A DNA stretch of 64,000 nucleotides, taken from positions 895 through 64,894 of the forward strand of contig JAKQCW010000021.1 of the NCBI GenBank assembly GCA_029558955.1. The letters are read 5' to 3'. Within the stretch, counting starts at the first letter, position 1, and each line of letters begins with the position of its first letter. The position numbers and the translations under genes were made by a program. Below, piece after piece: positions 33,069-36,359 of this stretch. The notes under the pieces are model-generated. The model was given only the letters and a program-made list of their open reading frames with translations, made no database searches and had not been told where the DNA came from. Source of the DNA: Chloroflexota bacterium. GTDB taxonomy: Bacteria; Chloroflexota; Anaerolineae; JAAEKA01.

Positions 33069-34349
33069 ATGGAAATTGGAGCCGTCCTCAAGATTATCGG
33101 AACTGTGATCTCAATAATATCCGGACTCGTCGAGTTGTATCAGAAAGCCGACGAGTATTTTGACAATCCAGATGACAATAATCGAAGTCAGTATGAATCC
33201 CAATTGATAGAAATCATCCGGAGTCGCCAGGCTATTTTGGACGCGTGTACTTCGATCTATCAAGCAATCACTCAATTGAGCAGCACGATGTTCCGCCAAG
33301 TAATCGCTGACAATCTGGGCGACGCTGATCAAGCGCAACAGGCTCTTGATAATTGGCGCAGACCACCGCAGTCTATTGGACAGCGCGATATCGCGCTAAA
33401 TGAGTCAGCCGGAGCGCTGGCCGATCTCCTTCAGTACTGGCGTAATGGTGTCTACCCCGGTGTCTCTCTTGTGGTGCCACTCATGGAGGTATTGCTGGTC
33501 CGTCTGTGGATATTGAAACAGGCAGACCCTTCATTCATTACTTCTGAAGTCGCCCGACAGCCTATCGAGGAAAGCGTCGTAATGCTCCGCTATACTGCCG
33601 GTGACCTTGAAGCCCGCATTCTGGCAGCTAACCAAGTTGAGAAGACAACCACGCACAGGACATGGGTTCGAATCGATCCAGAGACCGGTGACAAAGAGCG
33701 AGGCGTGACTACGACCGTTACCGTAAGTTATCACAACATCACCGGAACAGCTACCTATCACAGGAGCATCAGCTTCGAGAAAGATGACATTGACACGGAA
33801 ATCTCTGATGCCATTGCGGGGCTGCACGCGGAGGCTTCAGCCGCGCGTTCCGGAGGACTTTCGGAGGACCTCCGTCAAGCCCAGATCGATAACCTCAGAA
33901 GCACTGCGAGCAGGGCTGAAAGGTTGTTGCGCGGTGAAGAGATCCGTGTGGTTGAGAGAATCATCGGACGAAAGCTATCGCTTGTCGAAAACGCTGAATT
34001 CCAGACACTGCGTGAATCAAATGATCTTCGGGGAAGTATCGTGAAACTCGCTGACAAGTATATCCTTGAAGGAGAGCTTCGAGGTACCCTATTTGATGAT
34101 ATGATGACAAATTGTGGCGAACTTCTGTCTCACAGCCTGACAAGCGACGAGACGCAGGCGCTGATCGCACTTGCTCGTACTTTTGGATCAAAGGCTGCTC
34201 TGCGGGTTCTACTCCACCATCGGGACAGCGCAACTGCCAATCGCGTCAAGACCATACTTGACATATCTGCGGCTTCCATGCCGGAAGGACAACCTGGAAT
34301 TGAGGGGGAGATGCCGATGGAACCGACGAGAGAGGTTTCAACACTCTGA
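33069..34349 (+). CDS. Island protein D: hypothetical with an N-terminal hydrophobic/amphipathic helix and the C-terminal motif SMPEGQPGIEGEMPMEP
   Basis: AAAGGAG RBS before ATG 33069. N-terminus MEIGAVLKIIGTVISIISGLVELY. The C-terminal 15-residue motif is shared with the N-terminal extension of the downstream protease. Confidence 0.6.
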   Translation: MEIGAVLKIIGTVISIISGLVELYQKADEYFDNPDDNNRSQYESQLIEIIRSRQAILDACTSIYQAITQLSSTMFRQVIADNLGDADQAQQALDNWRRPPQSIGQRDIALNESAGALADLLQYWRNGVYPGVSLVVPLMEVLLVRLWILKQADPSFITSEVARQPIEESVVMLRYTAGDLEARILAANQVEKTTTHRTWVRIDPETGDKERGVTTTVTVSYHNITGTATYHRSISFEKDDIDTEISDAIAGLHAEASAARSGGLSEDLRQAQIDNLRSTASRAERLLRGEEIRVVERIIGRKLSLVENAEFQTLRESNDLRGSIVKLADKYILEGELRGTLFDDMMTNCGELLSHSLTSDETQALIALARTFGSKAALRVLLHHRDSATANRVKTILDISAASMPEGQPGIEGEMPMEPTREVSTL

Positions 34350-34490
34350 CCTCGGAATCGTAAGAAGGTTCACTCGCCCTCAGGGCGCGCATAGGATATA
34401 GGGTCACAGGTTCTATGTGCTTCAAGCATCCGGGCTGATACCGTAATTCTTACGGCGTGTCATTAGCTGCATCAACACAGGAGACGAAAC

Positions 34491-36359
34491 ATGAACGAGC
34501 ACAAAATCCCACAGTCCTCAGGTGATACGCAACCTCCTAGCGATATGCCCGCGGGTAGCATGACTGCTCAAGAAAGGCAGCCAAATGTGATAACAGACGA
34601 AATGCCCTCTGGGGCGATGACCAGCACCGCTGTGACCGCGGAGACAGCTTCCCCCACCATGCCTGAGGGAAATCCTGGTGTAGAAGGAGAGATGCCACCG
34701 GACCCCGTTGCTGGATCCCACCAAGAGTTGGCACAGTCGACCAGCGACAAGGAGTATGTTCCACAGGCTGGTGGTCTGATATCGGGTGCTGAAGGCATCG
34801 ATGTAGCGCGTTTGCAACGCTACTTACAGTTGTTCGGTTACACACAAGGACATCATCTGGCAGCGTTCGGCGCGGCAATGGAGGGCCTGGCGCAACCTCC
34901 CGTAGCAGTGGGTGTCTTTGATGACAATACTGCGCAGGCCCTGTTGCGATTTCAGGAGTTCAACGGATTGCCCCCGACAGGCGTGTTGGACGCGACTACC
35001 TTGGAGCTGATGCAGAAGCCGCGCTGCGGCTTTCCGGACGTAGCCGAGTTTGTCCACCAAGGCAGTAAGTGGAGTAAGACTAACCTTACCTATGGCTTTC
35101 AGAACTTCACACCGGATCTCACAGTGGCCCAGGTTCGTAGCGCCATCGCGAGTGCTTTTGGGTTGTGGGCTGCTGTAACCCCTTTGTCCTTCTCGGAGGT
35201 GCCGCTAGGGAATTCCCCCGATATTGTAATCCGTTTCGTTGGCGGCGATCATGGGGACGGCAACCCCTTTGATGGTCCCGGTGGGGTCCTCGCTCATGCG
35301 TATTACCCACCTCCAGGCGGAGGCGCACTCGCAGGAGACACGCACTTCGATGAGACCGAAACTTGGTCCATCAATCTGCCGGCTTCCGGAATCGATCTGA
35401 TTACGGTGGCGGGGCACGAGTTCGGACATGCACTTGGCTTGGCACACAGCAATGTAACTGGTGCCCTGATGTACGCGTACTATGGGGGGCCTCATCGACA
35501 ACTGGAAAGCGACGATATTGCTGGCATCCAGGGCCTTTATGGAAGGAGATCAAGATGGTCAGGTTGGGAGAAACTGGGTGGTGTTCTTACATCAGGCATT
35601 GGCGTCTCCTCCTGGGCGGCTAACCGGCTGGATTGCTTTGTGCGCGGTACTGACAACGCCATGTGGCACAAGTGGTGGAATGGTTCAAACTGGAGTGGTT
35701 GGGAGAACTTGGGCGGCGTGCTCACATCGGCCCCTGCGGCTGTGTCGTGGGGACCGAACCGCATCGACACCTTTGTTCGCGGAACCGACAACGCTATGTG
35801 GCATAAGTGGTGGAATGGCTCAAACTGGAGCGGCTGGGAGAGGCTGGGTGGCGTTCTCACATCAGGAATCGGCGTTTCCTCCTGGGCGGCTAACCGGCTG
35901 GATTGCTTTGTGCGCGGCACTGACAACGCCATGTGGCACAAGTGGTGGAATGGTTCAAACTGGAGTGGTTGGGAGAACTTGGGCGGCGTGCTCACATCGG
36001 CCCCTGCGGCTGTGTCGTGGGGATCGAACCGCATCGACACCTTTGTTCGCGGAACCGACAACGCTATGTGGCATAAGTGGTGGAATGGCTCAAACTGGAG
36101 CGGCTGGGAGAGGCTGGGTGGCGTTCTCACTTCAGGCATTGGCGTCTCCTCCTGGGCGGCTAACCGACTGGATTGCTTTGTGCGCGGCACTGACAACGCC
36201 ATGTGGCATAAGTGGTGGGATGGGGCGGCTTGGCGCGGTTGGGAAAGCCTGGGCGGCGTCCTTACCTCTGAACCGGGTGCCGTCTCCTGGGGTTCGGGTC
36301 GGATCGACACCTTTGTGCGTGGGGCCGATAACGCCATGTGGCACAAATGGTACGCATGA
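34491..36359 (+). CDS. Matrixin (MMP-like, M10) zymogen: N-terminal extension + PG-binding-like prodomain with PRCGFPD cysteine switch + [12 protein letters not shown] catalytic domain + six-bladed fucolectin/tectonin-like beta-propeller
   Basis: AGGAGA RBS. No signal peptide. [12 protein letters not shown]...[34 protein letters not shown] (propeptide). [12 protein letters not shown] plus Met-turn ALMYAYY. Six ~44-aa repeats W.GWE.LGGVLTS...[24 protein letters not shown]. Confidence 0.85.

Follow-up and report, generated by a model that had tools for sequence, protein, structure and literature searches.

A conserved 13-residue peptide common to a rare protein and the adjacent matrixin-type protease of a Chloroflexota operon: a candidate protease recognition element

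Genes D and E and their common peptide

Within a 64,000-nucleotide (64-kb) stretch of DNA from a Chloroflexota bacterium (assembly GCA_029558955.1, contig JAKQCW010000021.1), hereafter the window, six genes read from the + strand form an operon, named A to F. Two adjacent genes of this operon, namely D, encoding a member of a rare protein family, and E, encoding a predicted protease of the matrix metalloproteinase (MMP) type, have a 13-residue peptide in common, which is situated in the C-terminal tail of D and in the N-terminal extension of E. The features of these two genes and of the spacer separating them are as follows (coordinates in the window; aa, amino acids; pLDDT, predicted local distance difference test; pN, nonsynonymous divergence; the four loci are the window and the three orthologous loci described below):

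33069-34349, + strand: gene D, 426 aa, rare family without Pfam match, in an open reading frame (ORF) spanning 33027-34349
34242-34346, + strand: disordered C-terminal tail of D, aa 392-426, pLDDT below 50
34278-34316, + strand: D copy of the motif, MPEGQPGIEGEMP, aa 404-416, with 10 residues following before the C-terminus
34479-34483, + strand: Shine-Dalgarno sequence of E, AGGAG, 7 nt 5' of the ATG of E
34491-36359, + strand: gene E, 622 aa, with an N-terminal extension, an MMP prodomain, an MMP catalytic domain and a PLL-type lectin propeller
34491-34748, + strand: N-terminal extension of E, aa 1-86, hydrophilic and rich in Pro, Ser, Thr and Met
34545-34562, + strand: first MPxGxM unit, MPAGSM, E aa 19-24 (MP[ATI]G[SED]M across the four loci)
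34575-34607, + strand: degenerate upstream copy of the motif in E, aa 29-39, with QP[GN]V invariant in the four loci
34602-34619, + strand: second MPxGxM unit, MPSGAM, E aa 38-43 (MP[SLP]GAM across the four loci)
34659-34697, + strand: E copy of the motif, aa 57-69, pN 0.098 versus 0.235-0.265 in its flanks
35019-35039, + strand: cysteine switch PRCGFPD, E aa 177-183, at the end of the PG_binding_1 match
35415-35483, + strand: zinc site HExxHxxGxxH (E aa 309-319) and Met-turn ALMYAYY (aa 325-331), inside the Peptidase_M10 match
35550-36356, + strand: PLL/PHL-type lectin propeller, six W.GWE.LGG blades, phmmer 1.4e-100 to PHL (5mxe)

The start of D at 33069 is the choice of most gene callers. 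The C-terminus of D reads ...ISAASMPEGQPGIEGEMPMEPTREVSTL, the motif-containing peptide sequence being SMPEGQPGIEGEMPMEP. Four MP units, all of them conserved, follow one another about every 19 residues in the extension of E. When D is compared with E, BLASTP aligns the motif stretch only (12/22 identities, E=3e-6), and the best 13-mer of the two proteins counts 11 identities out of 13 (BLOSUM62 score 67). As Met, Pro, Glu and Gly abound in both disordered ends, D385-426 and E1-90 were compared with versions shuffled at constant composition; none out of 100,000 reached a score of 67 (mean 21, standard deviation 3.9, maximum 49) and, together with the BLASTP E-value, this rules out chance or low complexity. 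No further occurrence of motif-like patterns was found in the six frames of the window. With a profile of the motif region, short words proved common to only 23 of 5.8 billion protein clusters, none of which scored, and a widespread sorting or cargo tag is as such not supported. A D-E readthrough fusion was likewise discarded, since the two genes are in the same frame but several stop codons interrupt the spacer, as was a collagen-like protein, since the motif holds only three Gly-X-Y triplets (GQP-GIE-GEM) and a long uninterrupted collagen run is not present.

At the DNA level, 29 of the 39 bases are identical between the two copies of the window, the differences being mostly synonymous. Such a motif had been put forward by a sequence-only reading of the stretch, together with the ten residues that follow it in D, the MPAGSM/MPSGAM mini-repeats that precede it in E and the synonymous differences between its DNA copies, and all of this holds, with the motif delimited here to 13 residues.

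Conservation of the motif in orthologous loci

Proteins of the D family are rare, with five clusters among 5.8 billion proteins and 44 representatives among 1.84 billion (profile search). Three orthologous metagenomic loci were nonetheless recovered (L001, L005 and L009; Logan contigs), with D 76-79% identical and the gene order kept, i.e., BTAD regulator, small ORFs, A, B, C, D and E; all three contigs end within the repetitive propeller of E, the N-terminus of which is covered. In all four loci, the motif stands at identical residue positions in D and in E:

Window: D copy MPEGQPGIEGEMP; E copy at aa 57-69
L001: E copy MPEGQPGVEAETP; D copy present too
L005: D and E copies both present
L009: D copy MPEGRPGVEEEMP; E copy MPEGQPNVEGEMP

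Alignment of the seven distinct copies from these loci gives the consensus M-P-E-G-x-P-[G/N]-[V/I]-E-x-E-[M/T]-P, where positions 1-4, 6, 9, 11 and 13 never vary, position 8 alternates between Val and Ile, and only positions 5, 7, 10 and 12 are tolerant, in D as well as in E. Pooled over the loci, nonsynonymous (pN) and synonymous (pS) divergence are distributed as follows:

D motif: pN 0.052, pS 0.452, pN/pS 0.12
D flanks: pN 0.154, pS 0.29-0.30, pN/pS 0.51-0.54
D fold: pN 0.080, pS 0.301, pN/pS 0.27
E motif: pN 0.098, pS 0.277, pN/pS 0.35
E flanks: pN 0.235-0.265, pS 0.45-0.46, pN/pS 0.51-0.59
E catalytic domain: pN 0.055, pS 0.531, pN/pS 0.10

Nonsynonymous divergence in the motif is thus below that of the flanking disordered sequence by a factor of 3 in D and of 2.4-2.7 in E, and synonymous sites in the motif are free to differ in both genes. 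Because the pN/pS of the motif is below that of its flanks with synonymous sites remaining free, selection acts on the peptide. Besides, the D and E copies cluster by gene and not by genome, with a DNA identity of 74-87%, which rules out a recent DNA duplication or gene conversion, the grouping by gene arguing in particular against gene conversion between the D and E copies. From these sequence comparisons, the motif is a lineage-specific short linear motif kept by selection on the peptide. The sequence-only reading had also argued for selection on the peptide in place of a recent DNA duplication and had suggested looking for the motif in orthologues of D and E; with the four loci keeping the motif, a low pN, no sign of gene conversion, and retention at the same positions in the three orthologous loci, it is borne out in both respects. 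The co-variation of the motif between D and E that it had envisaged did not appear, as no compensatory signal was detected: changes in the D copies are independent of those in the E copies, although they fall on the same tolerant positions (5, 7, 10 and 12).

This pattern also bears on whether the motif has a function at all, as it could be a relic, i.e., a segment copied between the repetitive extension of E and the 3' end of D in a common ancestor and not yet decayed. Both motif-bearing segments are indeed young and clade-specific, the extension of E is internally repetitive, and only four close loci are known. A functionless relic is nevertheless improbable, since the peptide was kept despite a pS of 0.28-0.45 pooled in and around the motif and a pairwise synonymous divergence (dS) of up to about 1.4 in the extension of E, nonsynonymous change in the flanks is about three times as fast, and the same positions are invariant in both genes. 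Relaxed selection is moreover available for comparison, as the upstream E copy does decay: it reads GQPGVEA[GN]EMP in L001 and L005, and is decayed in the window and in L009 (RQPNVMADTMP).

Further away, a 48% identical D orthologue (P0005) has a shorter tail, ...DKPGILPAKTDK, which keeps only KPGI of the motif. Its locus (L011, 1305-3117), the only distant D locus, is without E and exhibits a tyrosine integrase downstream instead; about 700 nt of non-coding DNA 3' of its D gene include a 'MEHTVVKS*' remnant resembling the start of E. As for distant loci with both D and E, none was found in the GTDB genome scans or in the viral scan, the plasmids were without D homologue, and the metagenome scan gave only the E-less locus just mentioned, the contigs of the E-like proteins P0013-15 being short or decayed.

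The translation start of E deserves attention, as gene calls differ: most of them (Logan, ENA and one from JGI) are at M1, and two JGI calls are at M68 or M24. A start at M1 is supported at the sequence level by the invariant AGGAG, by most gene calls, by a frame open in all orthologues without any indel as far as the motif, and by a pN/pS of 0.51 pooled (0.26-0.52 pairwise) for residues 1-56. Around the Shine-Dalgarno sequence, AAGGAGACGRAACATG is common to the three orthologous loci and the core AGGAGACG-AACATG is invariant in all four, in a D-E spacer otherwise 79% identical. Were E truly to start at M68 (or M24), the E copy of the motif would be an untranslated leader conserved as an RNA or DNA signal, e.g., an internal AAGGAG-ATG. 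The two JGI calls, the AAGGAG of the motif DNA located 2 nt before the ATG of M68 and the lack of an extension in close relatives outside the clade go in this direction. Such a mis-called start is very improbable, however, given the AGGAG found 7 nt before M1 in the four loci, the use of M1 by most callers, the indel-free frame and the pN/pS of residues 1-56, to which can be added that 2 nt leave too little room between a Shine-Dalgarno sequence and its start codon and that synonymous positions of the motif vary. Of note, the motif DNA at 34686-34697, GAAGGAGAGATGCC, mimics a Shine-Dalgarno sequence plus ATG, which probably explains the JGI call at M68.

Protease E, protein D and the candidate reader of the motif

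Three Pfam matches cover E, namely Peptidase_M10 (4.5e-51, 159/159 profile positions), PG_binding_1 (1.4e-13) and DUF346 (3e-25), and in the PDB the protein aligns to proMMP-1 (1su3, from its residue 43), MMP-9, karilysin and the PHL/PLL lectins. No signal peptide was found in its first 60 residues, where 19-residue hydropathy reaches a maximum of 0.27 and a hydrophobic core is lacking; except for the N-terminal helix of D, the other proteins of the operon are also without a hydrophobic N-terminal segment. To judge from its complete catalytic hallmarks, E is a leaderless MMP-type zymogen (MEROPS M10A) with a lectin propeller. It resembles vertebrate proMMPs and karilysin in its PG_binding_1-type prodomain, PRCGFPD switch, HExxHxxGxxH site, Met-turn and C-terminal propeller exosite domain, but differs from them in having no signal peptide, in its 86-residue repetitive extension and in its propeller, which is of the PLL/PHL type, the hemopexin C-terminal domain, which most but not all members of the family have, being absent. 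With PHL and PLL, sugar-binding lectins of Photorhabdus, the propeller has an identity of about 50%, and a JGI record lists Beta-prop_PLL. Its DNA (35565-36351) is a 270-nt tandem repeat (2.9 copies, 89% matches) with two alternating blade types. Because the contigs break in this repeat and other assemblies give a shorter E, the number of blades (six here, seven in PLL/PHL) is uncertain; such variants are about 90 residues shorter (e.g., P0009, 509 aa).

The closest annotated relatives of E are leaderless matrixins of 261 aa, 53-54% identical, from plasmids of Bacillus thuringiensis, B. mycoides and B. cereus. Because these plasmid matrixins start directly at the prodomain, with neither extension nor propeller, the 86-residue extension, which is also missing from P0013-15, is by comparison with these relatives an add-on of this lineage. 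In L019 (846-1797), which has a decayed 58% homologue of E, the MPxGxM-rich segment is encoded apart, by a 77-aa ORF just 5' of a matrixin that is truncated, so that the Met/Pro/Gly-rich segment is somewhat older than the motif; this truncated matrixin has its own Shine-Dalgarno sequence, and no D gene is present. In the B. thuringiensis and B. mycoides plasmids (L028, 6334-9822; L029, 5467-8751), the matrixin adjoins a patatin-like phospholipase and a Dyp peroxidase.

For D, no match was obtained in Pfam or NCBIfam, and a PDB-sequence profile search was also empty. Its structural model (pLDDT 83, predicted template modelling score 0.76) comprises helices over residues 1-187, three long strands (191-237) and further helices (242-382), followed by the disordered tail. 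About 12 of the 18 distant full-length D homologues that were read end within about 15 residues of the ...FG.KAVL..LL.H.D block, so that the tail is, from this comparison, specific to this clade. A Foldseek search with the model gave nothing significant, the most probable match being IPD113 (0.97) with a TM-score of 0.28; a fold resembling Cry domain I is possible, as a lead only. Compared with the Cry, PirB and IPD113 pore-forming toxins, D gives no match by sequence or in Pfam and lacks both the beta-prism domain II and domain III, three strands only (aa 191-237) being followed by helices in the model; the resemblance comes from one method applied to a predicted helical bundle, with TM-scores of at most about 0.28. 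At the N-terminus of D (33069-33140) stands a helix of marked hydrophobicity (2.19 on the Kyte-Doolittle scale over 19 residues), a character conserved family-wide; this helix could be a membrane anchor, though the AlphaFold2 model packs it into the bundle. Elsewhere, members of the D family neighbour a patatin phospholipase (by P0016) or an M61 metallopeptidase with a PDZ domain (by P0031); the latter D protein, encoded 64 nt downstream of the metallopeptidase, has a disordered tail as well, and no motif common to this tail and the neighbouring M61 protein was found.

In the operon under consideration, the same positions are invariant or tolerant in the disordered ends of both neighbours, which suggests one common reader, the obvious candidate for which would be protease E. 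Our tentative preference goes to the motif as a recognition element of this protease, most likely a cleavage site. We infer here E as the reader, cleavage as the outcome and the position of the scissile bond: the leaderless zymogen, with its lectin propeller, would engage the C-terminal tail of D through the motif and would most likely cut at P-[G/N]|[V/I], which places the sole conserved aliphatic residue in the S1' pocket, while the copies of the E extension (one full, one degenerate) may be a cis version thereof, i.e., self-trimming sites or a pseudo-substrate. Both copies are in accessible segments, as the tail of D has a pLDDT below 50 and the extension of E is hydrophilic. Besides its three Gly-X-Y triplets, the motif offers a single conserved aliphatic residue, positioned after Pro and a small residue; MMPs accept a hydrophobic residue in the S1' pocket and cleave collagen at Gly|Ile/Leu. 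The most persistent core of the motif is x-P-[G/N]-[V/I], which is found twice in the E extension in the four loci and as KPGI in the 48% D orthologue. The complete MMP machinery of E and the disordered tail of P0031, encoded beside a metallopeptidase, point in the same direction.

Several points weigh against recognition or cleavage by E, namely (i) the canonical preference of MMPs is for Pro at P3 (PMC11285871), where the motif would have it at P2, (ii) to judge from the domain order, a cut at the motif would not remove the prodomain of E, so that activation would be left unexplained, (iii) the tail of D is not predicted to pack on the fold, and the loss of about 19 disordered residues would have no obvious consequence, (iv) only four closely related loci (D 76-79% identical) support conservation of the motif, (v) the sole more distant D locus has lost E, which prevents a proper correlation of presence and absence, and (vi) MPxG units about 19 residues apart fit multivalent docking at least as well. 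With respect to activation, some 30-45 residues separate the E copy from the prodomain downstream of it (conservation starts with KEYVPQ at aa 87, the PG_binding_1 match at aa 103), and 108 separate it from the cysteine switch. The earlier proposal that E autoactivates is not supported, because a cut upstream of the prodomain would trim the extension, leave the inhibitory prodomain in place and could not open the switch.

Alternatively, the motif and the MPxG units would bind without proteolysis, as a docking or co-assembly tag that attaches both D and E to one partner (A, B, C or F); in a variant of this explanation, the tail of D would be bound by the propeller of E, with the own extension of E competing in cis. 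Docking motifs usually reside in disordered termini, as both copies do; the four conserved MP units, one about every 19 residues, suit a multivalent contact with a surface made of repeats, such as a propeller of six or seven blades; the alternating invariant positions fit an extended bound peptide, and cleavage at the motif is without obvious regulatory effect. Conversely, a peptide ligand is not expected for a propeller about 50% identical to sugar-binding PLL/PHL lectins, no known peptide-binding domain was found among the operon proteins in the Pfam, PADLOC, NCBIfam and PHROGs scans, and the short words shared with only 23 of 5.8 billion clusters do not make a general sorting tag. Docking is possible but, taken by itself, rather unlikely, and yet nearly as likely as recognition or cleavage by E; a processing site and a docking peptide for the propeller were the two mechanisms offered by the sequence-only reading. 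The least credible explanation is a metal-binding tag unrelated to protease recognition, where Met/Glu-rich MPxG and EMP units would be ligands of Cu(I) or Zn: 8% of the E extension is Met, and the motif keeps its Met and Glu residues, but one orthologue has Thr for the second Met, the invariant Pro, Gly and Val/Ile would be left unexplained, and the spacing is unlike that of MxxM or MxM methionine motifs.

Among known systems, precedents for recognition or cleavage by E include the Pro-Pro endopeptidases (PPEPs), which are secreted M34-type enzymes whose substrates are cell-surface adhesins. The substrates of PPEP-1 and PPEP-2 are encoded next to the protease, that of PPEP-2 having been predicted from the gene arrangement (PMC10413326). 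As with PPEP-1 and PPEP-2 (C. difficile CD2831, P. alvei VMSP), a zinc metalloprotease here neighbours a gene with a conserved Pro-containing motif, and D is indeed an adjacent gene with a specific conserved motif in an accessible region, cleavage being here a prediction; unlike PPEPs, E is an M10 matrixin zymogen without signal peptide, and the motif is on the protease too. In bacterial gasdermin systems, the protease encoded next door cuts within a flexible segment and takes off some 20 residues from the C-terminus (bioRxiv 10.1101/2021.06.07.447441). The likeness lies in an effector gene beside a protease with a repeat or sensor domain; by contrast, D is mainly helical with a tail predicted to be disordered and not packed in cis, and E is an MMP and not caspase-like. 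As a bacterial gasdermin-protease system proper, D-E was discarded, given a predominantly helical D, a tail pLDDT below 50 and no PADLOC match. Encapsulin cargo-loading peptides are similarly short conserved peptides at disordered termini of co-operonic proteins, but no shell protein is recognisable here and word sharing with other proteins is negligible; for an HK97-type shell, no encapsulin match to A-F was found in Pfam or the PDB, and the single-sequence model of A (pLDDT 36) is unusable. By analogy, the logic of D-E would resemble that of known protease and adjacent-substrate pairs, with different components, i.e., a leaderless proMMP-lectin, a possibly Cry-domain-I-like D and a motif present on the protease.

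A broader proposal, which is speculative and unlikely, is that A-F constitute an undescribed protease-gated toxin system, where a Cry-domain-I-like, membrane-active D would be licensed by a dedicated, lectin-guided MMP zymogen through a private recognition peptide, of which the zymogen has a copy too. What caspases do for gasdermins would here be done by a metalloprotease, the pair of DUF2589 proteins (A and B, see below) being further components. If E does read or cut the motif, the locus would provide (i) a bacterial MMP together with its substrate and a defined site of 13 residues, (ii) a first functional handle on two orphan families, namely the D family and DUF2589, and (iii) a case of a lectin-fused proMMP that has no leader and is made inside the cell. 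If the motif is only a docking tag or a relic, the locus would still be an uncharacterised toxin-like operon, the motif then being of local interest only.

The other genes of the operon and its surroundings

The remaining genes of the operon are the following:

30674-31498, + strand: gene A, 274 aa, first operon gene, Pfam DUF2589 (E=3e-28), G+C content at third codon positions (GC3) 0.55, syntenic in L001-L009
31717-32394, + strand: gene B, 225 aa, divergent DUF2589-like paralogue of A, also called at 225 aa by gene callers in orthologous loci
32412-32978, + strand: gene C, 188 aa, no assigned function, syntenic in orthologous loci
36399-36854, + strand: gene F, 151 aa, last operon gene, no match in any HMM (hidden Markov model) library scanned

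A and B have a core VPxLxxLxxPxIRVxExTxD in common (BLASTP E=7e-5), B being without Pfam match. Gene C gave sub-threshold hits only, i.e., Pfam Periphilin_C at 21.6 bits (cut-off 27) and PHROGs at E=0.046, and matched neither PADLOC nor NCBIfam. For A, B, C, D and F, searches of PADLOC, PHROGs, NCBIfam and PDB sequences returned nothing above threshold, no known defence model of PADLOC fits A-F, and Rfam gave no match in the window, the D-E spacer being without terminator. No description was found of the motif, of the D family or of any DUF2589 function.

The composition of A-F is atypical (30000-37400: G+C content 46-60%, GC3 0.48-0.62 versus 0.82-0.93 in surrounding genes), which suggests a foreign origin; a host-like BTAD gene upstream is nevertheless syntenic with the operon in related loci. 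This SARP/BTAD regulator (28790-29737) is just 5' of the operon and is itself preceded by small cadherin- or Big_9-like proteins (27570-28564, e.g., 28130-28564), an arrangement kept in L005. On a larger scale, the operon is situated between two paralogous HTH-NB-ARC/STAND-TPR (helix-turn-helix and tetratricopeptide repeat) proteins, both on the - strand (24504-27368, 954 aa; 37889-40561, 890 aa). Directly 3' of F, an 89-aa ORF without Pfam match is followed by a HepT-like protein (37183-37919), an arrangement suggesting an MNT/HepT toxin-antitoxin pair. Regarding DUF2589, genes of this family are often paired in one operon, as for A and B here and for pairs on Fulvitalea and Vibrio plasmids (L015, L017), and a 'peptidoglycan-binding protein', the domain type of the prodomain of E, is encoded near DUF2589 in two of four plasmid loci.

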